Positions 6,232 through 46,431 of a DNA stretch of 64,000 nt are shown here, one piece after another; positions within the stretch are counted from its first letter, which is position 1; each line of letters opens with the position of its first letter. Position numbers and translations under genes: made by a program. A model generated the notes under the pieces. The model did no database searches and was not told the DNA's origin. It saw nothing but the letters and a program-made list of their open reading frames with translations. The stretch comes from Pseudomonadota bacterium (GTDB lineage: Bacteria; Pseudomonadota; Alphaproteobacteria; Acetobacterales; Acetobacteraceae), in contig JAKBBM010000001.1 in assembly GCA_021808545.1 (NCBI GenBank), positions 21,330-85,329 of the forward strand. The letters run 5' to 3'.

Positions 6232-7341
6232 TCAGGCTAAGGCCAGAACGCTGGCGAGGATGAAGCGGATCAGGTCGGCTTGGCCGCGCGCGCCCATTTT
6301 GGCGTAGATTTTTTTTGAATAATTACGGGCGGTTTCAACGGTCAGGCCAAGCGCGTCCGCGCCTTCCGCGATTGACATGCCCTGGCTCAAGACTAAGGCC
6401 AGTCGTGCTTCGCTAGGCAGCAAGCCAAACAAATCCGCGATCTGCTCATGCCGGTTGGAGGCGGTCTGGTTATCGCCTTGCACATAGGCGATCGCGACCT
6501 GGTGCGCGGGCGGCGTGTTTTGCGCCCCCCGGGCGGGAACGACCAGGATCTCGATCCAGGGGTCGCGGCTGATGGACAGCGCGCGCGGGCGCTCATGCGG
6601 GTTGGTGGCGCAGCGTTTTATGGCGTCGCTCAGCTCATAATCCAGCGCCTGGCGGGCCGCCACCAGACGGCCATGGCGGTCGCGGCGCAGCTCGCCGCAA
6701 TGCTGGAGCAGATGATCCGCATGCGGGCTGGTTTCGATAATCCGGGACGCGGCGTCCAGGCTGATCCAGCCAAAATTCAGGCGCTGCATCATCTCGGCGG
6801 CGATCCCTGAGCGGAACCGCTCCTGCTCAATCGTGACATAGGCGCGCAAGGCCCGCTGGGCGTGGGGGACGAGATTTCTGAGCAAGGCCGCATCGGCGCC
6901 GGTAAAATCGGACTTGTCGCGGGCGATGCTCAGCCACGCGCTGGTGCCCCCAGGCTCGACAATGCGCGCGATGCGCATATGGCGAAAGCCGTTGGATACG
7001 AATAACTCATTGTAAATATTGGCATGGGCCGGGTTGCTAAGCTCAAGCAGCTCGGCAATGGAATAGATCCGCTCCGGCCGTAAATTGAAGGCGGGAAAGC
7101 CAGGCTGTTGGTTCAGCGCGCCGCGGTAGAAGCCGCGCAGGGCCAGCGGCGAGGGCTCGCCGGTGCAAAATTCGGTGATCATATCGCCATGCAGGCAGGG
7201 CGGGCACAGCAAAATACCAGCATAATCAGCTTGCACGCGGGTGCGCAACCGATCCAGGAAAGACGCCCATAGTGGCTGCTCATAAAGCCCGTCATGCAGG
7301 GCGGTGAGGAGGTTTTGTTCGTCGGCGGTGCTGAGGGTCAT
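6232..7341 (-). CDS. LuxR-type HTH transcriptional regulator with N-terminal sensor/PAS-like region
   Basis: C-terminal [55 protein letters not shown]. Confidence 0.85.
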
Positions 7342-7465
7342 GGCATCAATATACTCCCATATGGGAGGTTACGACTTTGCTGGATCGTGTCAATCAAATG
7401 CATCATCCGCATTAGAAGCGGCCACCCAGCTTACGGAATGGAATAATGATACAGCGAGGAACAAA

Positions 7466-8374
7466 ATGAGTGCCGTAACCCTGACCCATTTGGAACGGCT
7501 TGAGGCTGAGTCCATCCAGATCATGCGCGAGGTTGTGTCCGAGGTCGAGAAGCCGGTGATGCTTTATTCCGTCGGCAAGGACTCGGCGGTGATGCTGCAT
7601 CTGGCGCGCAAGGCGTTTTACCCCAGCCCGCCGCCCTTTCCGCTGCTGCATGTCGACACGACCTGGAAGTTCAAGGCCATGTACGAAATGCGAGACCGCA
7701 TGGCCAAGGAAAGTGGCATGGAGCTGCTGGTTTATCAAAACCCCGAAGCCAAGGCGAAGGGTATTAATCCGTTCGACCATGGCGCCCTGCATACCGATAT
7801 GTGGAAGACCGAGGGGCTGAAGCAGGCGTTGGATAAATACGGGTTCGACGCGGCCTTTGGCGGCGCGCGCCGCGATGAGGAGAAGTCCCGTGCTAAGGAG
7901 CGGATTTTCTCGTTCCGATCGGCCAATCATCGCTGGGATCCGAAAAATCAGCGCCCGGAGCTGTGGAATCTTTACAACGCCCGCAAGGCCAAGGGCGAGA
8001 GCATACGCGTTTTCCCAATTTCGAACTGGACCGAGCTGGATATTTGGCAATATATCCATTTGGAAAAAATCGATATCGTGCCTTTATATTTCGCGGCCAA
8101 GCGGCCGACCGTGGAACGCGATGGGCTGCTGCTCATGGTCGATGACGACCGCTTCCCGCTGAAGCCGGGCGAAACGCCGGAAATGAGGTCGATCCGCTTC
8201 CGTACGCTGGGCTGCTATCCGCTCACCGGCGCCGTGGAGAGTGAAGCGACCACCTTGCCTGAGGTGATCCAGGAAATGCTGCTCACCACCACGTCCGAGC
8301 GCCAAGGCCGGGCGATTGATAAGGATGCTGGCGGGGCCAGCATGGAAAAGAAAAAGCAGGAGGGCTATTTCTAA
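7466..8374 (+). CDS. cysD: Sulfate adenylyltransferase subunit 2
   Basis: [68 protein letters not shown]; ATG at 7466 after GAGGA. Confidence 0.97.
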
Positions 8375-10284
8375 TGTCCGAGATCAAGGAAAGCTCCTAC
8401 AAAACCGATGAGCTGATCGCCAAGGATATCGATGCGTATCTGGAGCAGCATCAGCATAAATCGCTGCTGCGCTTTATTACCTGCGGCTCGGTGGATGACG
8501 GTAAATCCACTCTGATTGGACGGCTGCTCTACGATTCCAAGATGATTTTCGAGGATCAGCTCGCCGCACTCGAAGCCGATTCCAAAAAAGTCGGCACGCA
8601 GGGGCAGAATATCGATTTCGCGCTGCTGGTCGATGGCCTGGCCGCCGAGCGCGAACAGGGCATCACCATCGATGTGGCCTATCGGTTCTTCGCCACCGAG
8701 AAGCGTAAATTCATTGTCGCGGACACGCCCGGCCATGAACAATATACGCGCAACATGGTCACCGGCGCGTCCACGGCGGATCTTGCCGTGATCCTCATCG
8801 ATGCGCGCAAGGGCGTGCTGACACAAACGCGCCGCCATTCCTACCTGGCGCATCTCATCGGCATCCGCAACATCGTGCTGGCGGTGAACAAGATGGACCT
8901 GATCGATTACGATCAGGCGAAGTACGAGGCGATTGTCGCCGATTACAAGGCCTTCGCTGACAGTATCGGCATTAAGGGCTTCACGCCCATGCCGATCTCG
9001 GGCTTTATGGGTGATAACATCACCACCAAATCCACGAACACGCCTTGGTATCGGGGGCCGACCCTGATGGCGCATCTGGAAAGCGTGGAGCTGGACGTGA
9101 CGGCTGATCAGGCCAAGCCGTTCCGCATGGCGGTGCAATGGGTGAACCGGCCGAATTTGGATTTCCGTGGTTTCTCGGGCCAAATCGCGAGCGGCGTGGT
9201 CCGCCCGGGCGATGCCATCCGGGTTCTGCCTTCGGGCAAGACCTCCCAGGTTACCCGCATCGTTACCATGGATGGCGATCTGGAGCAGGCGGTGGCGGGG
9301 CAGTCCATCACGCTGTGCTTTGCCGATGAGATTGATTGCTCGCGCGGCGATGTGATCACCCTGTCGGACCAGCCGGTGCAGGTGGCCGATCAGTTCGAGG
9401 CGACCATCGTCTGGATGGCCGATGAGGCGCTGACTCCAGGCCGCGCCTATTGGCTCAAAATTGGTACGCAGACCGTCTCGGCCTCCATCCACGCGCCGAA
9501 ATACCAGGTGAACGTGAACACGATGGAGCATGTGGCGTCCAAGACGCTGGAGCTGAACGCGATCGGTGTCGCCAATATCGCCACCGACCGTGCCATTCCG
9601 TTCGAGGCGTACGAGAAGAACCATGCGCTGGGCGGCTTCATCCTCATCGACAAGATGAACAACGCCACTGTGGCGGCGGGGATGATCCATTTCGCGCTGC
9701 GCCGCTCGCAGAACGTGCATTGGCAGGCGCTCGATGTCTCGCGCGAGACGCATGCCAAGCTCAAGAATCAAAAGCCGGCGGTGCTATGGTTCACGGGGCT
9801 GTCGGGAGCAGGCAAGAGCACCATCGCCAATCTGGTCGAGAAGCGGCTGGTGCGCATGAACCGCCATACCTTCCTGCTGGATGGCGATAATGTCCGTCAT
9901 GGCCTCAACAAGGATCTCGGCTTTACCGAGACGGACCGGATCGAGAATATCCGCCGCGTCGGCGAGGTGGCCAAGCTGATGACCGATGCCGGGCTGATTG
10001 TGCTGACCGCCTTTATCTCGCCCTTCCGTTCGGAGCGCGACATGGTGCGGCAGATGATGCAGCCGGGCGAGTTCATCGAGATCTTCATCGACACGCCCTT
10101 GGCCGAGGCCGAGAAGCGTGACGTGAAGGGGCTGTATAAAAAGGCCCGTGCCGGGGAGCTGAAGAACTTCACCGGTATCGACAGCCCGTATGAGCCGCCG
10201 GAAGATCCCGAGCTGCATATCGACACGTCCAAACTCACACCCGAACAGGCGGCCGACCTGATCGTTGAAAGGCTGATCCCGTGA
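8374..10284 (+). CDS. cysNC: Bifunctional sulfate adenylyltransferase subunit 1 / adenylylsulfate kinase (CysNC/NodQ type)
   Basis: GTPase [22 protein letters not shown]; C-terminal APS kinase [33 protein letters not shown]. Confidence 0.97.
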
Positions 10285-11006
10285 CCGATTTGGAACTGGC
10301 GAAACATATCGCGGACACGGCGGGCACGCTGCTGCTCACCTTGCAGGAGTCTGGCCTGTTTTCGGAAAAGGCGCTGGGCAAGGCGGGGGACCGCGTGGCC
10401 AATGCCTTCATCATGGAGGCGCTGCGTCAGCAGCGCCCCGATGATGCGGTGCTCTCCGAGGAAGAGAAGGACAATGCGGCGCGGTTGCAGGCGGGCCGGG
10501 TGTGGATCGTGGATCCGCTGGATGGCACGCGTGAGTATGGCGAACGCCGGAGTGATTGGGCCGTGCATATCGCGCTCAGCATTGACGGCAAGCCGCAAGT
10601 GGGCGCCGTGGCGCTGCCTGGGTTGAAGCTTACCCTAACCTCCACGCCGCAAGCCCTGCCGCCGGTGGCGCCGAAGCTGCGCATGCTGGTTAGCCGCACG
10701 CGCCCCGCCAAGGAGGCGGTGGCGGTGGCGGAAGCGCTGGGCGCCGAGCTTGTGCCTATGGGCTCGGCTGGGGCCAAGGCCATGGCCGTGCTGCGCGGCG
10801 AGGCGGATATCTACCTGCATACGGGCGGGCAGTATGAGTGGGATAATTGCGCCCCCGCCGCCGTGGCGCTGGCCGCCGGGCTGCATGCCAGCCGGGTGGA
10901 TGGTAGCCCGCTCACCTATAATCACGAAAACCCGTATCTGCCGGATCTGCTGATCTGCCAGAAACACCTCGCCCCTCAGGTGATGCGGGCGCTCGCGGCC
11001 ATTTAG
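10281..11006 (+). CDS. cysQ: 3'(2'),5'-bisphosphate nucleotidase (inositol monophosphatase family)
   Basis: [36 protein letters not shown]; GTGA overlap with cysNC. Confidence 0.9.
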
Positions 11007-20173: not shown

Positions 20174-20259
20174 GGCTGTCCGTCCCGCCGCCGGATGGCG
20201 TCTTGCCGGGCCTGCCGCAAAATTCTAACGTTTTTTATAAACGTCTGACGGATTGGGAC

Positions 20260-21024
20260 ATGCGGGGATATTGGCGGGCGGAGCCGGACCAGCAGGACGG
20301 GCTGGCGCTGGCCGTGCGGGGCTTGAGCAAATCCTTTGGCCGTCAAGTGGTCGAGGGGCTGGACCTTAGTGTGCGTCCTGGTGAGTTTTATGCTCTGCTT
20401 GGCCCCAACGGGGCCGGCAAAACCACCAGCCTGCGCATGATCGCCGGGCTGATGCGCCCGGATGAGGGGCGGATCAGCGTGTTTGGGCATGATGTGCTGG
20501 CCAACCCTTTGGCCGCCAAATTGATTATGGCCTGGGTGCCCGACGAGCCTTTGCTGTATGACCGTTTGAGCCCGTTGGAATATCTGGCCTTCATTGCCGG
20601 ATTGTGGCGGATGCAGGCCCGCGCTGCCGAGGCCCGCGCTGCCGAATTGTTGGAAATTTTGGGGTTATGGCCGCATCGGCATGAGCGTTGCGAGGGGTTT
20701 TCCCGCGGGATGAAGCAAAAAACCGTGTTGGCCGGCGCTTTGCTGCATAATCCGCGGCTGCTGCTGCTCGATGAACCGCTCACCGGGCTGGATGCCGCCG
20801 CCGCGCGCCAGGTGAAGACGCTGCTGCAGGCCCATGTGGAAACCGGCGCGGCGATTATTCTGACGACCCATATTCTCGAGGTTGCCGAGCGGCTGGCGAC
20901 ACGTATAGGTATTCTCTCCGGTGGCGCGTTGCTGGCCGAGGATGATCTGGCGGGCCTGCGCGCCCGGGTTGGGTTTGTCGCCGGCTCGCTCGAGGATGTG
21001 TTTTTGCACCTGACAGCGCCTTAA
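20260..21024 (+). CDS. ABC transporter ATP-binding protein (exporter type)
   Basis: Walker A GPNGAGKT, FSRGMKQK signature, LLLLDEP, TTH. Confidence 0.93.
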   Translation: MRGYWRAEPDQQDGLALAVRGLSKSFGRQVVEGLDLSVRPGEFYALLGPNGAGKTTSLRMIAGLMRPDEGRISVFGHDVLANPLAAKLIMAWVPDEPLLYDRLSPLEYLAFIAGLWRMQARAAEARAAELLEILGLWPHRHERCEGFSRGMKQKTVLAGALLHNPRLLLLDEPLTGLDAAAARQVKTLLQAHVETGAAIILTTHILEVAERLATRIGILSGGALLAEDDLAGLRARVGFVAGSLEDVFLHLTAP

Positions 21025-22469
21025 TGTTGTTCGCGCCTGCAAGCTTTCCTTGGTTGCTGCGTCATGAGCTGCGTTTGCTGTGGCGTGGCTCGGTGCTGCT
21101 GCGCACGCGCCGCGCGGTGCTGGTGCCGGTGGCACTGGTGGGCGGCTTGTTCCAGCTCGTAGCCCTGCTGCTCGCGGGGCAGATCCTGCATCATCCGCTG
21201 GCCCCAGCCCAGATGCTGCTGGCGGCCAATATCAATGTCGTGTTTTTGGCGGCGCTGATGTTTTCGCGCGCGATCACGGCGAGCATCGACGTGCTTTACG
21301 CCCGTGGCGATGTGGATTTTCTGCTGGCCTCGCCCTTGCCGCCCGGGCGGGTGTTGGCGGTGCGTATATTGGGGGTGGCTTTTAGCATTGCCGCGCCCTG
21401 GCTGCTGCTGGGCGGGGTGCTGGCCAACGCGTTGGCCATGCGCGGGCAAGGATGGGCGCTGGCCATCTACCCCATGGTGCTGGCCGAGGCGCTGGTGGTT
21501 GCGGCCATTGCCTTTGCCGTCACGGTGGCGCTGCTGATGCGGATCAGCCCGCAGGCGGCGCGCCGGGTGGGGCATGGGCTGGCGCTGGCGGTCGGTGTTG
21601 GCATTTTCATCCTTGGCCAGGCGCCGCGTTTTGTTTCCGCCCCGCATTTGGCCGCGTTCTGGGCCGCCATGTTGCCGGGGCCGCATGGCGGCGGACTGGC
21701 GTTTTTGTTCGCACGCGGCTTGTTGGGGCAGGGGGGGGCGCTCATTGCCAGCCTTGGGGTCGCGCTGGCTGTGTTTGGCGCCATCTGGGGCGGGCTTGCC
21801 AAGTCTTTTGCTGAAGGCGCCATCAGCGCCGCCGCGGCGCGCCCGCGTGGACGTGTCCGTGGCCAGGGGGGCACGTTCCGGGCCAGCGCCCTGGCTGCGC
21901 TGTGCGGGCGGGATATGCGTTTGCTGTTGCGGTTTCCTGGTTTGGTCTCGCAGGTTGCTTACCGTTCGCTTGCCCTGGTGCCGGTGCTTATGATTTTGGC
22001 CGGGAAATTTCGGACTGGCGATGGCTTTGTCGTGGCTGTGCCGCTGCTGGTATTCTTGGGCGGGCAATTGGCGTTGTTTTTCGTATCGGTTTTATCGGGC
22101 AGCGATACGGCGCCAGATCTTGCCGCCAGCGCCCCGGTTACGGCGGCGCTCATCCGCCGTGCCCGTATCGCCACCGCCGCCTATGCCACGGTGCTGGTAC
22201 TGGCCGTGCCGCTGCTGGGCGTACTGGCGCGCGCGCCCGCCTTGCTGGAGCCGCTGCTGCTGGGGCTGGCCGGGGTGATGTTGTGTAACCTGATCTTGGG
22301 GTTGCGCCTGCCCATGCCGCTGACACGCGCGGCATTTGGTAAGGTGCAGCACGGCACATTGCTGGGGTTGGTTCTGGGGCTTGCGGTCAGCAGTTTTTGG
22401 GCGTTCATCATCTGGCTGATGGTAGCACCCGACCCGCTGATCTGGCTGCGCCCGGCCGCGGGCGGCTGA
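21024..22469 (+). CDS. Putative ABC exporter permease (multi-TM)
   Basis: Highly hydrophobic; LLRHELRLLWR, D.DFLLASPLP; TAATG coupling to the ATPase gene. Confidence 0.8.
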   Translation: MLFAPASFPWLLRHELRLLWRGSVLLRTRRAVLVPVALVGGLFQLVALLLAGQILHHPLAPAQMLLAANINVVFLAALMFSRAITASIDVLYARGDVDFLLASPLPPGRVLAVRILGVAFSIAAPWLLLGGVLANALAMRGQGWALAIYPMVLAEALVVAAIAFAVTVALLMRISPQAARRVGHGLALAVGVGIFILGQAPRFVSAPHLAAFWAAMLPGPHGGGLAFLFARGLLGQGGALIASLGVALAVFGAIWGGLAKSFAEGAISAAAARPRGRVRGQGGTFRASALAALCGRDMRLLLRFPGLVSQVAYRSLALVPVLMILAGKFRTGDGFVVAVPLLVFLGGQLALFFVSVLSGSDTAPDLAASAPVTAALIRRARIATAAYATVLVLAVPLLGVLARAPALLEPLLLGLAGVMLCNLILGLRLPMPLTRAAFGKVQHGTLLGLVLGLAVSSFWAFIIWLMVAPDPLIWLRPAAGG

Positions 22470-22474
22470 ACCAT

Positions 22475-23299
22475 TCAGCCGACCGGCAAATTATCTAACA
22501 GGCGGACATGGCCAAGCTTGGCCGCCGCGATCAGCCGTGCCGGATGCACTAGGCCCGAAACCGCCTCCAGCGATTGCGCGTGCACCAGCGCCACATAATC
22601 GGGCACCATGCCGGCCTGGGCCAGTTCGTGGCGGGCATGATGCAGGGTCGCGGCCACTTCCTTGCCGGCGACGATCTCTTGCGCGGCATGGGTCAGCGTG
22701 GCGTAGAGCCGCGGCGCGGCGCGGCGTTCCTCGGCAGTCAGGTAGCGGTTGCGCGACGACAAGGCGAGCCCGTCCGCCTCACGCACGGTTGGTACCGGCA
22801 CAATCTCAACCGGCAGCACCAGATCCGCTACCATGCGCGAGACAACCTGCACCTGCTGCCAATCCTTCTCGCCAAAATAGGCGGCTTGTGGGCGTAGCTG
22901 TCCAAACAGCTTGGCCACCACGGTGGCCACGCCGTTAAAATGCCCGGGCCGGGAAGCCCCTTCCCAATGCAAGGCAGGGCCGGCCATCTGAATATGGGTG
23001 GAATCGTGCGGCGGATACATGATGTCGGCCGTTGGCAGCCAGGCCAGGGCGCAGCCGGCTTCCTCAAGCTTGGCGAGATCTCCGGCCTCATCGCGCGGGT
23101 AGCGAGCGAAATCCTCGCGCGGGCCAAATTGCGTGGGGTTGACGAAAATGCTGGCGGCAACTGGCAGGCCCGCGGTTTTCGCGGCCTCGATGAGCGAGAG
23201 ATGCCCTTCATGCAGCGCGCCCATGGTCGGCACAAAGCCGATGGAGCCAAGTGTGGCGCGGGCGGCGCGCAATTCCTCGAATGTTCTGGCGATGATCAT
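22475..23299 (-). CDS. panC: Pantoate--beta-alanine ligase
   Basis: FVPTMGALHEGH, SIFVNPTQF, RPGHFNGVATVV, FGEKDWQQ, READGLALSSRN, VRLLDN. Confidence 0.97.
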   Translation of the reverse strand: MIIARTFEELRAARATLGSIGFVPTMGALHEGHLSLIEAAKTAGLPVAASIFVNPTQFGPREDFARYPRDEAGDLAKLEEAGCALAWLPTADIMYPPHDSTHIQMAGPALHWEGASRPGHFNGVATVVAKLFGQLRPQAAYFGEKDWQQVQVVSRMVADLVLPVEIVPVPTVREADGLALSSRNRYLTAEERRAAPRLYATLTHAAQEIVAGKEVAATLHHARHELAQAGMVPDYVALVHAQSLEAVSGLVHPARLIAAAKLGHVRLLDNLPVG

Positions 23300-23377
23300 T
23301 GTGCCCCCGGTTTTGACGATTTTGCGCGTTCCGTCCAGCCCCTGGGCAAGAGGGCTTTGGGTGGTTAGAAGGGTGGC

Positions 23378-25066
23378 ATGAGCAGGCAAACGAAGCCGTG
23401 GATCAAGGCGGAACAGAAGCTTGGGTTCCGCGCGGCAAGGCTACCTGTGGCGCTGGGCGCTGTGCAGGTGGTGTTCGGGATTGTGCAGGCGGGGTGTGCT
23501 GCGCGGCTATTGGCCGCGGTGCTGCACCTGGCGCGCGGCGGCGGAACGGCGCTGCTCTACGGTGTTTTATTCGCTGCCGCGGCTCTGGCCCGCGCCTATA
23601 CGCAAATGCAGGCGGAGCGCCAGAATTTTGAGCTGGGGGCTGCGGCGCGGCGGCGGTTGCGCGGCAATGTGCTGAGCGTGCTGCTGGCGCTGGGGCCGGC
23701 TGGCTTGCGCGGGCGCCATTCGGCCGATCTCGCCGCCACGGCGGTGGACCGGGTGGAGGCGATGGATGGGTTTCATGCCCGCTGGATCCCGGCAACACAG
23801 ATGGCGCTGATTGGCCCGGCCCTGGTTGGGCTTGTGGCACTCTTGGTGGATTGGCGCAGCGGGCTGATCTTGCTGGTGGCGGGCATGTTCGTGCCGTTTG
23901 CCATGGCGGTGGCTGGCATTGGCGCGGGCGTTGCGGCCAAGCGGCAATTTGTCGCCATGACCCGGCTGCAAGTCCGCTTTCTGGACCGTATTCGTGGTAT
24001 TTCCACCATTGTTCTGGCGGGCCGTGCGGCCGATGAAGCGCGCGCCCTGGGTGCGGCCGCGAAGGAATTGCGCGAGCGCACCATGCGGGTGCTGCGCGTG
24101 GCGTTTTTGTCTTCCACCGCGCTCGATCTTGCCGCCGCCGCCGCCCTTATCTTCATTGTTTTGCGCTTTGTGCCGGTGATGCATGGCGCGCTGGGCCTAG
24201 CGCCGGTGGCGCTGTTCATGGTGTTGCTGGTGCCGGAATTCTTTGCCCCCTTGCGCGGATTTGCCGTCGTGTATGGCGATCGTATGGCGGTGGAGGCCGT
24301 GGCCGACGAATTCTCTGCCCTGCCGCCAGCGCCAGAGGATGTGCCACCGGCCGATATTCGCGCCGTGGCCGCGCATGGCGTGACACTGGCGTTCGAGAAT
24401 GTCGGTTTTGCCTGGGATGAGACACGCGCGCCCGTGCTGCGGGATCTGTCTTTTAAGGTCGGGCGCGGCGAGATCTTGCTGCTGACCGGCGCCTCGGGGG
24501 CGGGAAAATCCACCATCATGGACCTCATTTTGGGCTTCATCGCGCCGCAGGATGGGCGGGTGACGATTAACGGTGCCGCGTTGGAAACCTTGGTGCCGGC
24601 GGCGCGCACCCGTATGCTGGGCTGGATCGGTCAGAAACCGGTGATTTTCGCGGGCTCGATCGAGGAGAATATCCGTTTTGCCCGTCCCTCCGCCAGCGAG
24701 GAGGAGCTGTGGGATGCGGTGCGCCATGCGCACCTGGAAGAGCTGGTCAACACCCTGCCGCAAGGGTTGAAAACGCCGCTGGGTGAGGGTGGGTTTGGCT
24801 TGTCTGGCGGTCAGGCGCAGCGCGTCGCCATTGCCCGCGCCTTCCTGAAGGACGCGCCGCTATTGCTGCTCGATGAGCCGACCGCGCATCTCGACCCCGC
24901 GGTGGAGCGCGATGTGCTGGAAAGCCTGAAGCATCTGGCCGCCGGGCGTACCGTGGTGCTGGCCACCCATTCCACCATGGCCATGGATTTTGCCAAGAGT
25001 GCGGGGGCGCGGCGGGTGGATTTGGATGCGTTGCGTTATGCCAGCTGGCGGAGTGTACCGGTATGA
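23378..25066 (+). CDS. cydD: Thiol reductant ABC exporter subunit CydD
   Basis: RMRVLRVAFLSS-like TMRVLRVAFLSSTALD, PEFFAPLR, GASGAGKST, LSGGQAQRVAIARAFLKDAPLLLLDEPTAHLD. Confidence 0.9.
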   Translation: MSRQTKPWIKAEQKLGFRAARLPVALGAVQVVFGIVQAGCAARLLAAVLHLARGGGTALLYGVLFAAAALARAYTQMQAERQNFELGAAARRRLRGNVLSVLLALGPAGLRGRHSADLAATAVDRVEAMDGFHARWIPATQMALIGPALVGLVALLVDWRSGLILLVAGMFVPFAMAVAGIGAGVAAKRQFVAMTRLQVRFLDRIRGISTIVLAGRAADEARALGAAAKELRERTMRVLRVAFLSSTALDLAAAAALIFIVLRFVPVMHGALGLAPVALFMVLLVPEFFAPLRGFAVVYGDRMAVEAVADEFSALPPAPEDVPPADIRAVAAHGVTLAFENVGFAWDETRAPVLRDLSFKVGRGEILLLTGASGAGKSTIMDLILGFIAPQDGRVTINGAALETLVPAARTRMLGWIGQKPVIFAGSIEENIRFARPSASEEELWDAVRHAHLEELVNTLPQGLKTPLGEGGFGLSGGQAQRVAIARAFLKDAPLLLLDEPTAHLDPAVERDVLESLKHLAAGRTVVLATHSTMAMDFAKSAGARRVDLDALRYASWRSVPV

Positions 25067-26691
25067 ACCCGATGATCCGTATTGTCTCCTTGTGGCTGCG
25101 CGAGGCGGGCTGGTTGCTGCTGGCCCTGCTGCTTGCATTGTCCGCCCTGGTGGCCGGTGTGGCGCTGATGGGCCTGTCTGGCCATTATCTAGCGCTTTCG
25201 CTGCTTGGCATCGCCGCTGCCGTGCCGGCCCTGCTGCCCTTTACCGGCACGGCGCGGGTGGTGCTGCGCTATCTGGAACGGGTGATGTCACACGAGGCGA
25301 TTTTCCGCGCCCTGGCCGATTTGCGGGTCTGGCTGTTCCGGGGGCTGGCCGCCAGTGCCGCCGGGGGGCTTGGCTTCCGCCGCGCGGGCGATGCGCTGGC
25401 CCGGCTGGTGAATGATGTGGACGTGCTGGATGGCGTGTTCCTGCGCGTGTTCGTGCCGCTGCTGGGGGGCGTGTTGCTGTTGCCCATTCTGGCCTGGGTT
25501 CTGGCGCGTGAATCCCTCCCCGCCTTGCTGGTATTGCTGCCGTTCCTGGCCGTGGCGTTCATCCTGCCTTGGCGGGCGGCCCGTGCCGCCCGGGCCAACG
25601 CCGCGCGCGCCGGGCTTGCCATGGCCAGCCTGCGCTCGGCCTCGCTCGATGCGTTGCATGGGCTGCGCGAGGTCAAGATCTTCGCCGCCGAAGGGCGGAT
25701 GCTGGCCGAGGTGCAGGCGCGCGAGGCAGACCTGCTGGCCGCGCAGCGCGATCTGGTCTGGCGGGGCAGCGCGCTCAATGCCTGGGCGTTTATTCTGGCG
25801 CAGGGCGGCATATTGCTCGCCATCGGGTGCGGGTTTTTTGGCGCGCCGGTGGCCGCCATCGTTGCCGTGCTGGTGCTGGTGACATCGTTTGAGACCGTGC
25901 TGGGCCTGCCGCGCGCGGGGCTGCTTTATGGCCAGTCCGCCGCCGCCGCCCAGCGTGTTGTGCGCGCGGCCGAGGCCGGGCCGCCAGTGCCCGATCCAGC
26001 CAAGCCCGCCGCCATGCCGGCGCGTAATAATATTGTCTTCGAGCATGTGGCCTTCCGCTATGCCGAGGACCGGCCCTTTGTGTTTGAGAATCTCTCCCTG
26101 CAATTGCCCGAAGGCTCGCGCACGGCGATTCTTGGGCCGTCGGGGGCGGGTAAATCCACCATCGCGGCCTTGCTGCTCAAGCTCATCGCCCCGGTGCGCG
26201 GCCAGATTCGCCTGGGTGGGGTGGATATTTCCACTCTGCCGGCCGAGGCGTTGCGCCATCGCATCGCCTATCTGGGTCAGACCACGCATCTGTTCGCCGA
26301 TACGATCCGCAACAACCTGCTGCTGGGCGACCCGGCGGCGGATGAGGCACGGCTCTGGGCGGCGCTGGAGGCAGCCCAGGTGGCCGATGTGGTGCGTGCT
26401 CTGCCCGAGGGGCTGGATTCTTGGTTGGGCGAAGGCGGGGCGACATTGTCCGGCGGGCAGGGGCGGCGCTTGGCGCTGGCCCGCACGCTGCTGATGGATG
26501 CGCCGATCCTGCTGCTGGACGAGCCCTGCGCCGGGCTGGATGCGGCAACCGAGATGGAGTTCTTCCGCGTGCTGAACAGCGCCACGGAAGGGCGGACCGT
26601 GTTGCTGATTTTGCACCGGCTGACCGGGGTTGAGCAGCTCGACCGTATCTGGCGCTTAACCGGCGGCGCGCTGGTGGCGGCGGCGGGGTAA
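25063..26691 (+). CDS. cydC: Thiol reductant ABC exporter subunit CydC
   Basis: RVVLRYLERVMSHEAIFRALADLRVWLF, RLVNDVDVLD, GPSGAGKST, LSGGQGRRLALAR.LL; ATGA overlap with cydD. Confidence 0.9.
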   Translation: MNPMIRIVSLWLREAGWLLLALLLALSALVAGVALMGLSGHYLALSLLGIAAAVPALLPFTGTARVVLRYLERVMSHEAIFRALADLRVWLFRGLAASAAGGLGFRRAGDALARLVNDVDVLDGVFLRVFVPLLGGVLLLPILAWVLARESLPALLVLLPFLAVAFILPWRAARAARANAARAGLAMASLRSASLDALHGLREVKIFAAEGRMLAEVQAREADLLAAQRDLVWRGSALNAWAFILAQGGILLAIGCGFFGAPVAAIVAVLVLVTSFETVLGLPRAGLLYGQSAAAAQRVVRAAEAGPPVPDPAKPAAMPARNNIVFEHVAFRYAEDRPFVFENLSLQLPEGSRTAILGPSGAGKSTIAALLLKLIAPVRGQIRLGGVDISTLPAEALRHRIAYLGQTTHLFADTIRNNLLLGDPAADEARLWAALEAAQVADVVRALPEGLDSWLGEGGATLSGGQGRRLALARTLLMDAPILLLDEPCAGLDAATEMEFFRVLNSATEGRTVLLILHRLTGVEQLDRIWRLTGGALVAAAG

Positions 26692-38613: not shown

Positions 38614-38745
38614 AATCCCCGTCCGCATGAGTTTCAGGCCATTATATAGTAACGGACCCGGCTCTCACAGCCCCGCGAGAAAAGCGCGCGGGGGGTGCTT
38701 GCAATCCGTCGCGGCTCTGTTTAAAGAGCCTCCACCACGCCGTGA

Positions 38746-38820
38746 GCGGGCGTAGCTCAGGGGTAGAGCACAACCTTGCCAAGGTTGGGGTCGAGGGTTC
38801 GAATCCCTTCGCCCGCTCCA
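38746..38820 (+). tRNA. tRNA-Gly(GCC)
   Basis: GCGGGCG-TAGCTCAG...CAACC-TTGCCAA-GGTTG...GGTTCGAATCC...CGCCCGCTCCA; 75 nt. Confidence 0.98.
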
Positions 38821-38927
38821 ATTTTCCTTACTTACCTTTTATTTTTCCCGTAAAATCTCCGATTGTACGGATGCCTTGTCTGTACCGGCCCCTTGCTCGT
38901 TGCGGCCGCGCATGGTGCAATCGGCCC

Positions 38928-39494
38928 ATGGTGAAATTAGACAAAATCTACACGCGCGGCGGTGATCAGGGCGAAACCTCGTTGGGCGACGGTACGCGCT
39001 TGCCCAAATCCTCGGCCAGGGTCATGGCGCTGGGTGAGGTGGATGAAGCCAATGCGGCTTTGGGGCTGGCCCGGCTGCACGCCGATGAGGGCATGGATGA
39101 GATGCTGGCCCGCTTGCAGAATGATCTGTTCGATCTCGGTGCCGATTTGTGCATGCCAATCCATGAAGGGGCATCGCCCGCTCTGCGCGTAACGGATCAA
39201 CAGGTGGCCTGGCTGGAAGCGCGGATCGACACGGTGAATGCGGGCTTGGCGCCGTTAACCTCCTTTATATTGCCGGCTGGCACGCCGCTTGCCGCCAATC
39301 TGCATCTGGCGCGCGCGGTGGTGCGCCGGGCCGAGCGTGCCGTGGTGCATTTGCTCGAAGCGCCCGACGAGGCGGTGAACCGGCTGGTGCTCGTTTATCT
39401 TAACCGCCTGTCGGATCTGCTGTTCGTGCTGGCCCGGGCGGCCAATGGCGGTGAAGATATATTGTGGCGGCCTGCGGGCGGGGCGAAGGGCTAA
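38928..39494 (+). CDS. Cob(I)alamin adenosyltransferase, PduO type
   Basis: KIYTRGGDQGETSLGDG, GEVDEAN, QNDLFDLG, FILPAG, ARAVVRRAER, YLNRLSDLLF. Confidence 0.94.
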   Translation: MVKLDKIYTRGGDQGETSLGDGTRLPKSSARVMALGEVDEANAALGLARLHADEGMDEMLARLQNDLFDLGADLCMPIHEGASPALRVTDQQVAWLEARIDTVNAGLAPLTSFILPAGTPLAANLHLARAVVRRAERAVVHLLEAPDEAVNRLVLVYLNRLSDLLFVLARAANGGEDILWRPAGGAKG

Positions 39495-41393: not shown

Positions 41394-42350
41394 TCACCCC
41401 GCGCCGATGAGCACGCCCGTGGCGAAGACGAGCGCACCGCCAAGGGCAACCTGCAGGGTCGCGCGCAGGGGCGAAGTATCCATATAGCGCCAGCGGATCC
41501 AGGAGATTATGCCCAGCTCCACGGCCACCACGCAGAAGGCGACGATGAGCGCCATGCGCAGGTTGGGGATAAGGAAGGGTAATGTATGGCCAAGCCCGCC
41601 CAGCGTGGTCATCAGCCCGGTCACGATGCCGCGTATATAAGGCGTGCCGCGCCCGGTCAGGCTGCCATCGTCCGACAGGGCCTCGGCGAAACCCATGGAA
41701 ATACCCGCCCCCAGCGACGCGGCGGCGCCGACCAGAAAGGCGTCGAACGGCCGGCCGGTGGAAAAGGCGGCGGCGAAAATCGGCGCCAGGGTCGAGACCG
41801 AGCCATCCATGAGCCCCACCAGCCCGGGCTGGATATATTGCAGCATGAACAGGCGCTCAGCATGCTTGTCTTCGTGCAGGCGGATATCGGCGGTCAGGTT
41901 TTTGCTCGAGAGTTCATCCGCGCGGACCTCGTGCTCTTGCTCGGCCTCGGCCAGATCGCCGAGTAATTTGCGGATCGATACATCCGTGGTGCGCGAAGCG
42001 GCCAGGCGGTAAAACCGCTTGGTCTCGGTCTCCATGCTTTCGGCGAGATTGCGCACTTCCTCAATGCTGGGCGAAGGCAATTGCCAGACCGGCTTACGCT
42101 TCAGAAAGCCGCGTACATCCTGGCGGCGGATCAAGGGAATGTGATCGCCGAATTTCTCGCGATACAAATCGAGCAGGCGGCGGCGATGATCGCCCTCTTC
42201 TTGCGCCATTTCGGTAAAGATCTGCGCGGAGGCGGGAAATTCCTCACGCAGACGCTCGGCCAGATCGTTGTAGATGCGGCCATCCTCTTCCTCGGCGCCA
42301 ATGGCCAGGGCCAGAACTTCGCGCTCGGAGAGTTGAGAAAAATCGCGCAC
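41394..42350 (-). CDS. mbfA: Iron exporter MbfA (rubrerythrin-like ferritin domain + VIT1/CCC1 membrane domain)
   Basis: [65 protein letters not shown] start 42350 preferred; alternative ATG 42380. Confidence 0.9.
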
Positions 42351-42536
42351 TGTCAAAACTCCTTGGATTTCAGCAGCCATGTGGCGCGCGCAACCATTTT
42401 GGTCAAGCCGACTATATCTTTATAAGAATGATTTTCAAATGCATTTAGCGTGGCGCTTGCGGCGTTGCCGGCAAACGCAAAGATTGTATTATGCGTGAGA
42501 AAACCACTTTAAAATGCACCAGCAAGGGGGCTTGGA

Positions 42537-44369
42537 TTGACGATTGGCTTATGCTCATGCGGAAGCGGTCTACGAGCCGTGCGCTGTTGCGAGATGGCCG
42601 AACAGGCATGGCCGCTGCAGGATCATACCGTTTTACTGGATGATCAGGCGGCCGCGGCCACGAAATATTTCAACGAAAAGAAATATGCCGAGGCCGAGGC
42701 GCTGGCGCTGAAAATCCTCGATCTCGCGCCGAATCAACGCATGGCGCTGCGCGTGCTGTATGAAGTGCGCAAGGCGCAAAATCAGGTGCCGGCGGCATTG
42801 GCGCTGGCCCGGCGCTTGGCGGCATTGCCGGGGGGCGCGCCGCAGCGTGCCGCCGCCCATGCGCAGCTGGCGCATTATCTGGTGGGGCTTGGCCGCCATG
42901 CGGAGGCTTTGCCAGCGGCGGCGGCGGCGCTGAAGGCAACCCCGCGCGATGCCACGGCCCAGCATGTGATGGGTGTGGTATTGACTGAGACTGGGGATTT
43001 CCTGGCTGGCGAGCGGCATTACCGCCAAGCCTTGGCCCGGCTGGGGCGGGAAGACGGGTTGGTGCTGGCGAATCTGGCCTGGAATCTGAAGCAGCAAGGG
43101 CGGCTGGCGGAAGCCAAGACGCTGTATGACCAAGCCCTGGCTCTGCGGGGCGATAATCCACGCGGCATTGGCGGGGCGGCACAGGTGGCGTTCGCACGCG
43201 GTGAGCGGGCGCGTGCCGAGGCCCTGCTAGACGATGCGCTGCGTCGCTGGCCCGAAGACCGCCCATTGCGGCTGCTGCGCGCATTGGCGGATTTGGCGCA
43301 GGACCGAGCGCAAGCGGTGCTGGACCGGCTGAGCCCGGTGGAGAGACTGATCGCGCCGGAATTTCTGGCGCGCGGCCAAGCACAGGACCGGCTGGGCCAG
43401 TTGCGGGAGGCGGTAACCAGCTTTGCCACGGCGCGGCGGATACAGCGCGAGCGCGCCGGGCTGACCTACCAACCCGCGCCGCTCACCGCGCGGGCGGCGG
43501 CTTATCAATCTTACTTCACCGCCGATCGTGTGCAGCCCTTGCCGCGCGCGGCAGCCGGGCCGTTCACGCCGGTATTTCTGCTTGGCTTTGCGCGTGCCGG
43601 CACCGGGTTGCTGGAGCAGCTTTTGGCGCAGGTGCCCGGCTTTGCCGTGGGCGATGCGGCCGGATCGTTTGAGGGTTTGGCGGATGCCGTGCCGCGTCTG
43701 GCCGCAAGCGAACACCCCTACCCAGAGGCGCTGGATGATCTGCTGGTGGGCGACAACCAGCAACTGCCTGAACAGCTGCGCCAAATGTATGAGGAACAGC
43801 GCGCCCGGCTTGGCCTGCTGCGCCCCTATATACGCTTCATCACCGACAGGGCGGTCGGCAATGCCTGGCATCTCGGGTTGATCAATCTGTTGTATCCCGA
43901 AGCGCCCATCATCCATGTGCTGCGCCACCCGTATGATCTGATGCTCGCTAACATCGCCCAGGACCGCAAGTTGGAAGGCAACGCCCATGCCGGCCTGCCG
44001 GCGCTGGCCCATTATTACGGGCTGCATGCGGAAATGATCCGCCATTATCGCGGCCAGCTCACGCTGCGTTATCTGCCCGTGCGGTATGAGGATCTGGTGG
44101 CCGACCCGGCGGCGGTGCTGGCCGAAATTCTGGCTTTTATCGGCGGCACAGCCCCTGTGCCCGCGGCCGAGATTTTGCGCGCGAATGCGGGGCCGCTGCC
44201 CGAGCCGCAGCCCGCGCATTTCATTTTCCGCGAGCCGGTGCATACGCGCGCCGCGGGGCGGTATCGGGCCTATTTGGCCGCCATGCCACAGCTTTTCGCC
44301 GAGGTGCAGGCTGAACTCGCCCCCTGGATCGAGCGCTTGGGCTACACGGTTGAGGAGGCGAGGGCATGA
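42537..44369 (+). CDS. SEC-C motif + TPR + sulfotransferase-family protein
   Basis: TTG start after AAGGGGG; CSCGSGLRAVRCC; several TPR-like helical repeats; PVFLLGFARAGTGLLEQLL; LINLLYPEAPIIHVLRHPYD; VRYEDLVADP. Confidence 0.85.
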   Translation: MTIGLCSCGSGLRAVRCCEMAEQAWPLQDHTVLLDDQAAAATKYFNEKKYAEAEALALKILDLAPNQRMALRVLYEVRKAQNQVPAALALARRLAALPGGAPQRAAAHAQLAHYLVGLGRHAEALPAAAAALKATPRDATAQHVMGVVLTETGDFLAGERHYRQALARLGREDGLVLANLAWNLKQQGRLAEAKTLYDQALALRGDNPRGIGGAAQVAFARGERARAEALLDDALRRWPEDRPLRLLRALADLAQDRAQAVLDRLSPVERLIAPEFLARGQAQDRLGQLREAVTSFATARRIQRERAGLTYQPAPLTARAAAYQSYFTADRVQPLPRAAAGPFTPVFLLGFARAGTGLLEQLLAQVPGFAVGDAAGSFEGLADAVPRLAASEHPYPEALDDLLVGDNQQLPEQLRQMYEEQRARLGLLRPYIRFITDRAVGNAWHLGLINLLYPEAPIIHVLRHPYDLMLANIAQDRKLEGNAHAGLPALAHYYGLHAEMIRHYRGQLTLRYLPVRYEDLVADPAAVLAEILAFIGGTAPVPAAEILRANAGPLPEPQPAHFIFREPVHTRAAGRYRAYLAAMPQLFAEVQAELAPWIERLGYTVEEARA

Positions 44370-45739
44370 GCGACGCACAGGCAGCGGGTAAGCAGGTGGT
44401 GCCGCTTGCGGTGGCGCTGGAGAAGTTGAGCCGTCTGGAGCAGGAGAACAAGCTGGCAGAGGCGGATGATCTGGCCAACCGCATGCTGGAGGCGATGCCC
44501 AAACATCCGCATATCCTGCATCTGGCGGGGATCATCGCCTACCGCAACGGGCGTATCGCCCAGGCGGTTGAGCGTATGGAGACCGCGCAGGCGCTGGCGC
44601 CGGATGTTGCTCTTTATCCGCGCAATATGTGTGAGGTGTATCGCGGCGCGGGCCAGTTGGACGATGCGCTGCGCGCGGGGCGGCGCGCGGTAGAATTGGC
44701 GCCAAATGAAGCCCGTGCGCATTTCAACTTGGCGCTGATTCATTATGAGCGTCTGGAGCTGGACGAGGCCGTGCGCGTGGCTGAGCGCGCCATAGAGCTT
44801 GATCCCGAATTCGCCGAGGCGCATTTTGAGAAGGCCGAGGCGCAGCTGCTCGCGGGCCGGATGAAAGACGGCTGGGAGAGCTATGAATGGCGCTTTCGGC
44901 TGAAACAGGCCGAGGGCATGCTGCCCAAGACCGACAAGCCGCAATGGGATGGCGCGCCTCTGCCGCCTGGGCGGCTGTTGATCATCGGCGATCAGGGGTT
45001 TGGCGACTGCATCCAGTTTAGCCGGCTGATCCCGTGGGTGGCGTCGCTCTGTCCGCAACCTGTACTGGCCTGTTCGGGTGAGCTCACGCCGATTCTCAGG
45101 CAGATTCCAGGGGTGGGGCGGATGGTCACACGCTGGGAGGATACGGGTGATTACGATGTCTATATCCCGCTCTCGGGTTTGCCGCGCCTGGCCGGAATCG
45201 ACACGGACAATGTGCCGCCGGCTGGCTATCTTACGCCCGATCCGGCCCTGGTGGAACAATGGGGCGCGCGGTTGAACCGGCTGCTGCCAGAAGGCAAGAA
45301 GCGCATTGGCCTGGTTTGGGCTGGGCGGCCCACCCATAAGAATGACAAGAAGCGCACGCTCAAACTGGCCCAGTTCGCGCCTTTGTTTGCGCGCGATGAT
45401 GTTGTGATCGTGACCGTGCAGAAGGGTGAGCAGATTGCCCAGGTCGGCGATTATTACGCCCACGCGCCGCTGATCAATCTCGGCCCCGAAATTGGCGATT
45501 TTCTCGATACCATGGCGATTCTGAAGAATATCGACCATCTGGTGACGATCGACACCTCGGTCGTGCATCTGGCGGGGGCTATTGGCGTGTCGGCTTCGCT
45601 GGTGCTGCCCTACGCGCCAGATTGGCGCTGGCTTCTGGGGCGTGAGGATTCACCCTGGTATCCCTCGGTTCGGCTTTACCGGCAGGATAAACCCTATGAT
45701 TGGAGCGGGGTGATCGAGCGCGTGGCCGCAGCGCTTTAG
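44366..45739 (+). CDS. TPR + GT-B (family 9-like) glycosyltransferase
   Basis: N-terminal TPRs (HPHILHLAG, EARAHFNLA, FAEAHFEKA); QWDG.PL, GDQGFGDCIQFSR, IGLVWAG.P.H.ND, D.LVTIDTSVVHLAGA.G, WRWL..R.DSPWYP; ATGA overlap. Confidence 0.88.
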   Translation: MSDAQAAGKQVVPLAVALEKLSRLEQENKLAEADDLANRMLEAMPKHPHILHLAGIIAYRNGRIAQAVERMETAQALAPDVALYPRNMCEVYRGAGQLDDALRAGRRAVELAPNEARAHFNLALIHYERLELDEAVRVAERAIELDPEFAEAHFEKAEAQLLAGRMKDGWESYEWRFRLKQAEGMLPKTDKPQWDGAPLPPGRLLIIGDQGFGDCIQFSRLIPWVASLCPQPVLACSGELTPILRQIPGVGRMVTRWEDTGDYDVYIPLSGLPRLAGIDTDNVPPAGYLTPDPALVEQWGARLNRLLPEGKKRIGLVWAGRPTHKNDKKRTLKLAQFAPLFARDDVVIVTVQKGEQIAQVGDYYAHAPLINLGPEIGDFLDTMAILKNIDHLVTIDTSVVHLAGAIGVSASLVLPYAPDWRWLLGREDSPWYPSVRLYRQDKPYDWSGVIERVAAAL

Positions 45740-46194: not shown

Positions 46195-46431
46195 TTAGTT
46201 CTTCTTGGCGGTCTCGGCCTTCTTGGCGGCCTTATGCTCAACCTTCTTATGCTCAACCTTCTTATGCACGATTTTCTTGTGCGCGGCCGGCTTCACTTCC
46301 TTGGTCGCCTTGGCGGGGGCGGACATGGTGGCGGCGGGCTTGGCCGGCGCTTGCATGGTGTTGGTCTGGGCCAGGGCCGGGGCGGCCAGGGCAGCCGTGG
46401 TAACGGCAGTCAGAATGATACGACGAATCAT
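46195..46431 (-). CDS. Small secreted Lys/His/Ala-rich protein (Asr-like acid-shock protein)
   Basis: Signal peptide MIRRIILTAVTTAALAAPALA; tail HKKIVHKKVEHKKVEHKAAKKAETAKKN; SD GGGAAG. Confidence 0.8.
   Translation of the reverse strand: MIRRIILTAVTTAALAAPALAQTNTMQAPAKPAATMSAPAKATKEVKPAAHKKIVHKKVEHKKVEHKAAKKAETAKKN
46231..46275. repeat. 15-bp tandem repeat encoding HKKxx units
   Basis: CTTATGCTCAACCTT x2 followed by the variant CTTATGCACGATTTT. Confidence 0.85.

Follow-up and report, generated by a model that had tools for sequence, protein, structure and literature searches.

Within the window, a chromosomal stretch of 64,000 nucleotides from an Acidocella-like Acetobacteraceae member of the Pseudomonadota (GenBank assembly GCA_021808545.1, contig JAKBBM010000001.1, positions 21,330 to 85,329, forward strand), two overlapping genes, termed here open reading frame (ORF) A and ORF B, encode a sulfotransferase (ST) and a GT-B glycosyltransferase-like protein (GT), each with an N-terminal array of tetratricopeptide repeats (TPRs). 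We propose, with as much reserve as confidence, that this pair performs TPR-guided sulfation and glycosylation, in the cytoplasm, of an exported outer-membrane or surface protein. The notion of a coupled, cytoplasmic and protein-targeted pair, already present in the original prediction made from the DNA letters alone, is supported by the adjacency of the two genes in nearly all orthologous loci, their recurrence in distant proteobacteria, a fusion in Methylovirgula, the architecture of ORF B, which resembles that of O-GlcNAc transferase (OGT) and SPINDLY (SPY), and an ST domain with tyrosylprotein sulfotransferases (TPSTs) as nearest relatives. New here is the observation that a classical autotransporter gene adjoins the pair, or the ST alone, in at least five lineages, and that elsewhere the ST neighbours genes for TonB-dependent receptors or a type I secretion system (T1SS) adhesin operon with cysC. 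The features of the locus, in which the ST is of the type using 3'-phosphoadenosine 5'-phosphosulfate (PAPS), are as follows.

42465..42492, plus strand: putative sigma-70-like promoter of the ST-GT operon, TTGCCG-16-TATTAT (consensus scan)
42537..44369, plus strand: ORF A, SecA-like metal-binding motif, TPRs and PAPS-type ST (610 residues, TTG start)
42552..42590, plus strand: CxCx8CC motif (C6 S C8 G S G L R A V R C17 C18) of the SecA metal-binding domain (MBD) or SEC-C type (alignment of homologues)
42669..43436, plus strand: TPR array of ORF A, about residues 45-300 (Pfam TPR_2, TPR_14, TPR_12, TPR_19 and others; PDB matches to OGT and consensus TPRs)
43569..44366, plus strand: ST domain of ORF A, residues 345-610 (PF13469; family profile against PDB)
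44366..44369, plus strand: ATGA start/stop overlap of ORF A and ORF B, predicted translational coupling (sequence)
44366..45739, plus strand: ORF B, TPRs and GT-B glycosyltransferase-like domain (457 residues, ATG start)
44405..44899, plus strand: TPR array of ORF B, ten helices, residues 14-178 (Pfam TPR families; AlphaFold secondary structure)
44906..45736, plus strand: predicted GT-B domain of ORF B, residues 181-457, remotely GT9-like (profile matches; AlphaFold model)

The coupled pair and its two proteins

The layout read from the letters, namely two genes overlapping at an ATGA, both with TPR arrays and no signal peptide, was recovered: both ORFs lie on the plus strand, Pfam recognises TPRs in each, and neither a signal peptide nor a transmembrane segment was found, the maximal 19-residue hydropathy within the first 40 residues being 0.87 for ORF A and 0.71 for ORF B. 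A promoter-like element (GCGTTGCCG...TGTAnnAT) is kept upstream of the ST in most loci of Acidocella, the name also borne by the closest relatives of the window proteins. Near-identical DNA was found in only four sequencing runs, all of them DNA metagenomes of mine drainage, and no RNA-seq run containing the locus was found. ORF A is full length, and its sequence is identical on four contigs.

An ST alignment, used to scan 185,579 species genomes, retrieved 78 loci. The orthologous set, with STs at least 42% identical, comprises 65 loci from Acidocella, Acidiphilium, Rhodovastum and other Acetobacteraceae; the GT lies immediately downstream of the ST in 62 of them, the remainder being two loci at a contig edge and an atypical truncated one. 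Isolates carrying the pair include Acidocella facilis ATCC 35904, A. aminolytica DSM 11237, A. aromatica DSM 27026, A. aquatica NBRC 112502 and Acidiphilium rubrum (loci L021, L048, L031, L025, L057). Most of the 70 loci compared offer a start codon positioned four nucleotides ahead of the ST stop. Among distant ST relatives (28-37% identity) with the same architecture of CxCx8CC motif, TPRs and ST domain, a GT adjoins in seven loci and is absent in six. The pair is also present in Azospirillum, in a metagenome-assembled genome labelled Asaia and in other Acetobacteraceae at 33-36% ST identity, and it recurs in Ralstonia and on enterobacterial plasmids. Furthermore, plasmid pHY1 of Methylovirgula sp. 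HY1 (L086, 5935-9726) encodes a single GT-ST fusion of 1263 residues, comprising TPRs and GT (254-523) and TPRs and ST (1013-1261). Co-occurrence and neighbourhood had been named as a check of the original prediction, and the genes are indeed linked elsewhere, within the family as well as in distant proteobacteria; a functionally coupled, cytoplasmic and protein-directed pair is the interpretation supported by these data. Additional ST copies were noticed in two cases: a second CxCx8CC-TPR-ST paralogue (L065), 37% identical and without a GT, lies on the same Acidocella chromosome (OZ240683.1) as a canonical pair (L038), and Rhizomicrobium (L079) carries two ST genes in tandem.

At the N-terminus of ORF A, the motif follows the CxCx8CC spacing known from the SecA MBD, with a Ser after the second Cys, in agreement with the SEC-C-like motif (CSCGSG...CC) originally noticed, and C6, C8, S10, C17 and C18 are invariant in the alignment of homologues (A2). 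It is present in nearly all homologues whose gene call extends far enough, and also in the distant relatives (L053-L078). Gene callers begin ORF A at an ATG located 57 nucleotides downstream (591 residues), by which the motif is lost, and many shortened calls of homologues start within it ('MRCC...', 'VRCC...'). Since the motif is conserved in the long calls and the short ones start inside it, we take the 610-residue reading as the real one. Domains of this kind are defined by the motif CXCX8C[HC] with a conserved Ser and bind iron in vivo, and that of SecA binds SecB and ribosomes (bioRxiv 10.1101/613315). The C-terminal MBD of SecA and its counterparts in YecA/AscA and YchJ are metal-binding modules (Zn or Fe) that dock on SecB and ribosomes; of these, the N-terminal copy of YchJ reportedly lacks the residues for SecB binding (bioRxiv 10.1101/613315; 10.1101/2020.07.21.215244). 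ORF A shares with them the spacing and the Ser, whereas its motif is N-terminal, has Ala or Val at the aromatic position (Tyr893 in SecA), and gives no match to Pfam SEC-C (PF02810) with the 48-residue N-terminus as query, this model being very short and the HMMER filters dropping weak matches. As SecA motifs of the CXCX8CC form dock on SecB and ribosomes, the ORF A motif would fit an access to Sec substrates and could, by analogy, carry the ST to SecB or ribosomes.

The ST domain assigned to the first gene is confirmed by a match to Sulfotransfer_3 (PF13469) at residues 345-536 (E 1.4e-23, 84.7 bits for a cut-off of 27). When searched against PDB sequences, a broad family profile built from 16 diverse domains retrieves, over the whole domain, TPST1/2 first (E 1.4e-24 to 2.5e-21) and next the OLS and CurM polyketide synthase (PKS) sulfotransferases (E 4e-20 and 6e-17), with cytosolic, carbohydrate and small-molecule sulfotransferases trailing far behind (E>=1e-7). 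A profile restricted to the Acetobacteraceae clade ranks OLS (3e-13, 4gox) before CurM (8e-8, 4gbm) and TPST (2e-6). The PAPS loops are recognisable in ORF A as a 5'-phosphosulfate-binding (5'-PSB) loop, GFARAGTGLLEQ, and a 3'-phosphate-binding (3'-PB) motif, RHPYDLMLA, while R353, G355, E360, Q361, R463, P465 and D467 are invariant in the ST clade. The likeness to TPST1/2 thus lies in the shared Pfam branch, the best full-domain PDB matches and the retained 5'-PSB loop and R-x-P-x-D motif. In contrast, TPST1/2 are Golgi-lumenal, whereas ORF A is predicted to be cytoplasmic and is joined to a TPR arm and a SecA-like motif; the catalytic positions also differ, as discussed below. The 'activating' domains of CurM and OLS, for their part, sit in PKS modules and sulfate a beta-hydroxyacyl substrate tethered to the acyl carrier protein (ACP), a PKS context that is absent at the ST-GT locus. 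A bacterial protein-tyrosine sulfotransferase exists in Xanthomonas, where RaxST sulfates RaxX, and this enzyme is devoid of TPRs.

With regard to the sulfate donor, the original prediction had pointed to CysNC and CysQ, which are present in the window but not linked to the pair, as follows.

7304..11006, plus strand: cysD-cysNC-cysQ, PAPS synthesis and removal of 3'-phosphoadenosine 5'-phosphate (PAPS_reduct, GTP_EFTU with APS_kinase, and Inositol_P families)

These genes (cysD, 7304-8374; cysNC, 8374-10284; cysQ, 10281-11006) lie 32 kb upstream, and a supply of donor to the ST from this unlinked cluster is plausible.

In ORF B, Pfam TPR families cover residues 1-175, corresponding to about five TPRs. 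The C-terminal 277 residues gave nothing significant against Pfam and NCBIfam, GT9 (PF01075) scoring below threshold (E 0.19, 11.4 bits for a cut-off of 22). With ORF B alone, the search of PDB sequences returned TPR matches only, those to OGT and SPY being confined to residues 25-156. A profile of the GT domain, built from 27 diverse copies, places the lipopolysaccharide (LPS) heptosyltransferases WaaF/WaaC in the top four positions at sub-significant values (E 0.08-0.1), in an alignment that includes the D-T-x3-H-L-A-G nucleotide-sugar motif and, more faintly, the N-terminal G-D motif. Across the GT family, GDxxQF and D-T-x3-H-L-A-G are conserved, and G213-D214 and D396-T397...H401, which are invariant or at least 90% conserved, line up with the WaaF/WaaC motifs in these weak HMMER alignments and may play the corresponding roles.

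The AlphaFold model of ORF B, built on a 70-sequence alignment, has a mean predicted local distance difference test (pLDDT) score of 93.2 and a predicted template modelling (pTM) score of 0.88. It displays ten TPR helices, two Rossmann-like alpha/beta lobes (strand-helix units 204-306 and 312-414) and a short C-terminal extension, and at the level of this model the GT-B fold of the C-terminal domain is confirmed. Foldseek against PDB gave as best matches SPINDLY, human and Drosophila OGT, XcOGT and the Thermobaculum OGT (TtOGT) with E from 1e-12 to 6e-9; the OGT, SPY and XcOGT matches have probability 1.0 over 420-550 aligned columns, with template modelling (TM) scores of about 0.35 that are partly TPR-driven. 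Given the lobes of the model and these matches, ORF B appears to be built like the known protein O-glycosyltransferases that combine TPRs and GT-B. As regards the GT9-like GT-B domain originally predicted, the fold was retained and the GT9-likeness was reduced to a remote resemblance in sequence. The best structural matches belong to GT41 (OGT, SPINDLY, XcOGT), whose GT-B catalytic domain is preceded by a TPR superhelix. However, the catalytic domain of ORF B has no sequence similarity to GT41 and no PF13844 match, in addition to the TM scores given above, and the motifs of its family (GDxxQF, DTxxxHLAG and DWRW...PWYP...RLFRQ) indicate a separate family leaning towards GT9. This GT-domain family is covered by neither Pfam nor NCBIfam models and comprises 37,986 representative clusters (50% identity) with E<=1e-3, or 14,454 with E<=1e-30. 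Among its members are proteins of 1,000-3,140 residues with two to six tandem TPR+GT modules; no ST domain was found among the 150 best of these multi-module proteins.

Neighbouring genes and candidate clients

Roughly 90 loci were examined for neighbouring genes, including about 22 distinct loci outside the orthologous clade, the latter being a convenience sample and no census. Among these 22 or so, an autotransporter gene lies beside the ST in nine, a TonB-dependent receptor gene in four and a T1SS adhesin gene in one. The autotransporters were identified by Pfam PF03797 (E 1e-55 to 2e-61), and such proteins represent a small fraction of any genome. The linkage survives changes in gene order and spans Alpha-, Beta- and Gammaproteobacteria. 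The order is ST, GT, autotransporter in A. soli (L078), and ST, autotransporter without GT in Arenibaculum (L068), while in three Azospirillum loci (L072, L074, L076) the autotransporter gene is divergent from ST-GT; a tblastn search with the Azospirillum autotransporter found it beside the ST in these five scan loci. On plasmids of Azospirillum sp. TSH58 and A. argentinense Az39 (L081, L083), ST-GT converges on an 'invasion associated locus B' gene and an autotransporter gene of about 1,240-1,280 codons. The megaplasmid of Ralstonia solanacearum (L082) encodes an autotransporter (985 residues, PF03797 E 2e-61), a TPR-ST (705 residues, PF13469 E 2e-45) and a TPR-GT (387 residues), the last two genes overlapping by 4 nucleotides. 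The same overlap is seen on pENTE01 (L084), the conjugative IncF plasmid of Enterobacter sp. 638, where TPR-ST and GT are followed by an autotransporter gene, and related plasmids occur in Kluyvera and Lelliottia. In Thalassospira marina (L087), an autotransporter gene precedes TPR-ST, and TPR-GT lies two genes away.

Other exported proteins take the place of the autotransporter in some loci. On a Comamonas endophytica plasmid (L089, 7483-15355), genes for a giant cadherin-domain protein, a TPR-ST, the T1SS components TolC/ABC/HlyD and finally cysC follow one another in this order without a GT, which looks like a self-contained operon for sulfating and then exporting an adhesin. In loci from Pseudoalteromonas, Asticcacaulis, Novosphingobium and Komagataeibacter plasmids (L093, L094, L095, L088), the gene directly ahead of the ST codes for a TonB-dependent receptor, the Asticcacaulis locus also harbouring an Asp/Asn beta-hydroxylase gene and two more sulfotransferase genes.

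These arrangements bear on the order of events. The original prediction had the protein first glycosylated and then sulfated, and a sulfated O-glycan, made by ORF A acting on the sugar attached by ORF B, is an explanation that we consider rather unlikely. Strict pairing, translational coupling and the GT-ST fusion would suit consecutive steps on one substrate; however, the ST occurs without a GT beside an autotransporter in Arenibaculum and beside the T1SS adhesin in Comamonas, and alone after TonB-dependent receptor genes, and the targets of its nearest characterised relatives are tyrosine (TPST) or an ACP-bound hydroxyacyl group (CurM/OLS) and not sugars. Since the ST is found with a client gene in the absence of a GT, and since its relatives have tyrosine or carrier-bound hydroxyls as targets, the protein itself is a likelier site of sulfation than a glycan, and the order first proposed found no support.

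The clients first put forward, flagellin, S-layer protein or pilin, did not fare better, no such genes being found in the approximately 90 loci, where autotransporters, TonB-dependent receptors and a T1SS adhesin are the recurrent neighbours. The precedent on which they were based stands as it was stated, since Caulobacter FlmG does combine a TPR domain that binds flagellin with a GT-B domain, a two-domain logic shared with ORF B, and a chemoreceptor encoded in the window suggests that the organism may be motile. Yet flagellar, nonulosonic-acid, S-layer and pilus genes are all missing near the pair in every locus examined, and FlmG-type enzymes are reportedly confined to Caulobacterales, which makes a FlmG-like system for flagellin, S-layer protein or pilin highly improbable here. 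The further suggestion that the modification could stabilise surface proteins at low pH found no support either, the same pair occurring in the neutrophiles Azospirillum, Ralstonia and Enterobacter.

Some other neighbours were considered and set aside. Two small ORFs downstream of the GT (65 residues; 78 residues, secreted and Lys-rich) were dropped as clients, not being conserved in other loci. At 46195-46431 on the minus strand, a small ORF with a signal peptide and an Ala/Pro/Lys-rich tail with HKK(V/I)(E/V) repeats was noticed, which among the compared loci is present only on contigs of this organism. The operon upstream of the pair in A. soli, devoted to glycerol-3-phosphate and ABC-transport metabolism, is unrelated. 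Genes downstream of the GT in Acidiphilium, coding for a solute-binding protein, an enoyl-CoA hydratase/3-hydroxyacyl-CoA dehydrogenase and an AMP-ligase, have no clear link to the pair. Of note, enoyl-CoA hydratase and AMP-dependent ligase genes recur beside ST/GT in Azospirillum, Acidiphilium-like and Burkholderia loci (L081, L083, L070, L060, L053, L092), and so do iron ABC-transporter or solute-binding genes.

Elsewhere in the window, a second GT9-like ORF (17187-18581, plus strand) matches PF01075 with E 4e-8 and carries a C-terminal C-x2-C-x10-C-x8-C cluster; the position of this cluster recalls the iron finger of TibC-type enzymes, and there is no sequence match to TibC. It was rejected as a paralogue of ORF B, with which it shares only a 39-residue motif match. 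The longest ORF of a PduO-type cobalamin adenosyltransferase (38742-39494) overlaps tRNA-Gly (38746-38820), and its start is considered spurious, as the gene call on the same contig begins later, at about window position 38928. Finally, the AT skew is strongly negative (to -0.33) at 20001-26000, across ABC-transporter genes (20203-26691), and becomes positive (+0.22) at 28-30 kb, where a PMT_2/ArnT-like glycosyltransferase gene lies on the minus strand, a pattern that probably reflects the T-rich coding strands of membrane proteins.

Observations against the proposal and competing explanations

Several observations weigh against the proposal, starting with the active site of ORF A. According to the profile alignment, the TPST catalytic trio E99/K158/S285 is not matched, ORF A having Ala374/Arg438/His561. 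At position 374, the counterpart of the catalytic Glu99 of TPST2, ORF A has the sole Ala among 120 clade members (E in 72, D in 31, another residue in 17), so that this position is variable in the Acetobacteraceae clade; Arg occupies the place of TPST2 Lys158 in 119 of the 120, and His that of Ser285 (the RTAS serine) in all of them. Furthermore, two PAPS-contacting serines, that of RSGT and that of the 3'-PB motif, are Ala in ORF A, as in 26-29 of the 120 members. ORF A of this genome might accordingly be catalytically impaired and serve merely as a TPR/MBD adaptor for ORF B. We give this idea a slim chance only: the unique Ala374 and the two serine replacements would be expected from it, whereas the neighbouring Asp373, kept in 115 of the 120, could act as the base, 16 other members are also non-acidic at position 374, the remaining nucleotide-binding motifs are intact, and the ORF is full length with the same sequence on four contigs.

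The evidence on ORF B is weakened by the sub-threshold GT9 score, the sub-significant WaaF/WaaC matches and the low, partly TPR-driven TM scores reported above, and by the wider TPR-GT family, which is also found in glycan-type islands with methyltransferase and GT2 genes, for instance in A. lipoferum. A different substrate could also be envisaged, namely a non-protein glycoconjugate at the inner membrane face (LPS core, lipid A, capsule or glycolipid), the TPRs serving for assembly or as a scaffold. The only PDB sequence relatives of the GT domain are indeed LPS heptosyltransferases; sulfated LPS and Nod factors, products of LpsS and NodH, exist in alphaproteobacteria; and glycan-type clusters containing GT2 or GT-A, methyltransferase and deacetylase genes harbour some of the TPR-GT and TPR-ST relatives. 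Nevertheless, the WaaC/WaaF matches are at E of about 0.1 only, polysaccharide and LPS genes are absent next to the pair in all 65 orthologous loci, the ST is TPST/CurM-like, the fold and architecture of ORF B match protein O-glycosyltransferases, and the recurrent linkage is to genes of exported proteins, in view of which we judge a glycoconjugate substrate decidedly unlikely.

Client identity in the Acetobacteraceae is the third weak point. No autotransporter, TonB-dependent receptor or adhesin gene was found beside the pair in the 65 Acetobacteraceae loci; tblastn searches of the window with the Azospirillum, Ralstonia, Enterobacter and Thalassospira autotransporters revealed no homologue; Pfam scans of 34 window ORFs detected no autotransporter domain; and no protein named Acidocella or Acidiphilium is found among the best 120 relatives of the Azospirillum autotransporter. 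The sole conserved neighbour is instead the following gene.

41394..42380, minus strand: mbfA-like gene (rubrerythrin/erythrin and VIT1 domains), divergent from the pair (Pfam annotation)

This gene adjoins the pair divergently in 60 of the 61 orthologous loci with the flank available, while the folD/purU and pcm/tolC flanks come and go. The intergenic region shared by mbfA and the ST contains two conserved elements, the ST-GT promoter-like sequence and a Fur-box-like 7-1-7 palindrome (AAGAATGATTTTCAAATGC, 42411-42445), which overlaps a minus-strand promoter-like site of mbfA and is kept as TGAGAATGAnTnGCA in most Acidocella loci. In this family the client could thus be a cytoplasmic or inner-membrane, iron-related protein, most simply MbfA itself through its cytoplasmic ferritin-like N-domain, in which case the pair would tune iron export. 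Besides the conserved adjacency and the Fur-box-like palindrome, the binding of iron in vivo by SecA-like CxCx8C[HC] domains would suit such a role, as would the place of mbfA, which is the divergent position held by the autotransporter gene in Azospirillum (L072, L074, L076); we regard this coincidence of position as unexplained and not as evidence. However, the argument consists of adjacency within one family, which could be inherited synteny, the Fur-like box lies on the mbfA promoter whereas the ST has a conserved promoter of its own, and outside the family the pair exists without mbfA. A client of this kind is therefore, in our estimation, very unlikely.

Lastly, no activity has been demonstrated for any member of either family, and searches within the accessible literature library retrieved no description of a TPR-sulfotransferase associated with an autotransporter, a TonB-dependent receptor or a TPR-glycosyltransferase, nor of one in alphaproteobacteria.

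Proposed function and comparison with known systems

What we infer as to enzymatic activity, protein acceptor, order and site of modification, and client can be put as a mechanism. The two genes would constitute an operon with its own promoter and translational coupling, and both products, as soluble cytoplasmic enzymes, would modify the same client protein, each binding the acceptor through its own TPR arm. ORF A, a putative PAPS-dependent ST of the TPST/CurM branch, would sulfate the client directly, on Tyr or another hydroxyl, and ORF B, as an inverting-type GT-B enzyme, would attach a sugar, with a soluble nucleotide sugar as donor. If the related loci are a guide, the client would be a Sec-exported outer-membrane or surface protein, chiefly a classical autotransporter, modified before export. 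A more far-reaching version, conceivable in our view but on balance doubtful, holds that an undescribed cytoplasmic process of TPST-like sulfation and glycosylation acts on Sec-exported outer-membrane proteins (autotransporters, TonB-dependent receptors), that the ST would be brought to unfolded or nascent pre-proteins by docking of its SecA-type motif on SecB or the ribosome, and that the module would, in the Acetobacteraceae, have been redirected to a client encoded elsewhere, possibly MbfA.

If confirmed, the proposal would introduce a new post-translational chemistry for bacterial surface proteins and offer a first way into the function of two very large families that lack annotation. The pair is conserved across a whole family of acidophiles and is packaged with an autotransporter gene in Azospirillum, in Ralstonia and on conjugative enterobacterial plasmids. 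To our knowledge, protein sulfation is essentially unknown in bacteria apart from RaxST, and cytoplasmic glycosylation of autotransporters is known so far only for the bacterial autotransporter heptosyltransferase (BAHT) and HMW1C types, the latter being cytoplasmic N-glycosyltransferases of adhesins.

Among the known systems, the BAHTs offer the closest parallel in gene logic. AAH and TibC modify the passengers of AIDA-I and TibA, and their genes adjoin that of the autotransporter (eLife 2014, PMC4358343). The BAHTs (AAH/AIDA-I, TibC/TibA, BimC) are cytoplasmic GT-B enzymes related to WaaC-type heptosyltransferases, which modify the passenger before export (PMC4358343). The placement of the enzyme beside the autotransporter is mirrored by the relatives of the pair in Azospirillum, Arenibaculum, Thalassospira, Ralstonia and Enterobacter, whereas neither the window nor any Acetobacteraceae locus presents this adjacency. 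Structurally, TibC has a beta-barrel at the N terminus, a thumb in the form of a beta-hairpin and a 4-Cys iron finger (PMC4358343), and ORF B instead a helical TPR N-domain with no Cys cluster. TibC does not appear among the PDB matches of ORF B or of its family profile at E<=10. We know of no sulfotransferase partner for BAHTs.

The second parallel concerns architecture. In FlmG, a protein O-glycosyltransferase of Caulobacter and Brevundimonas, the soluble N-terminal TPR domain binds the acceptor and the C-terminal GT-B domain sets the donor, a soluble nucleotide sugar (eLife 2020, PMC7591256), and ORF B shares this succession of domains. FlmG is tied to flagellin and to pseudaminic or legionaminic acid genes, whereas the pair has no such linkage, this comparison being one of architecture and linkage; unlike FlmG, ORF B has a sulfotransferase partner. 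Taken together, the pair would join the TPR-guided glycosylation of the FlmG/OGT type and the adhesin modification logic of the BAHT type with a TPST-like partner.

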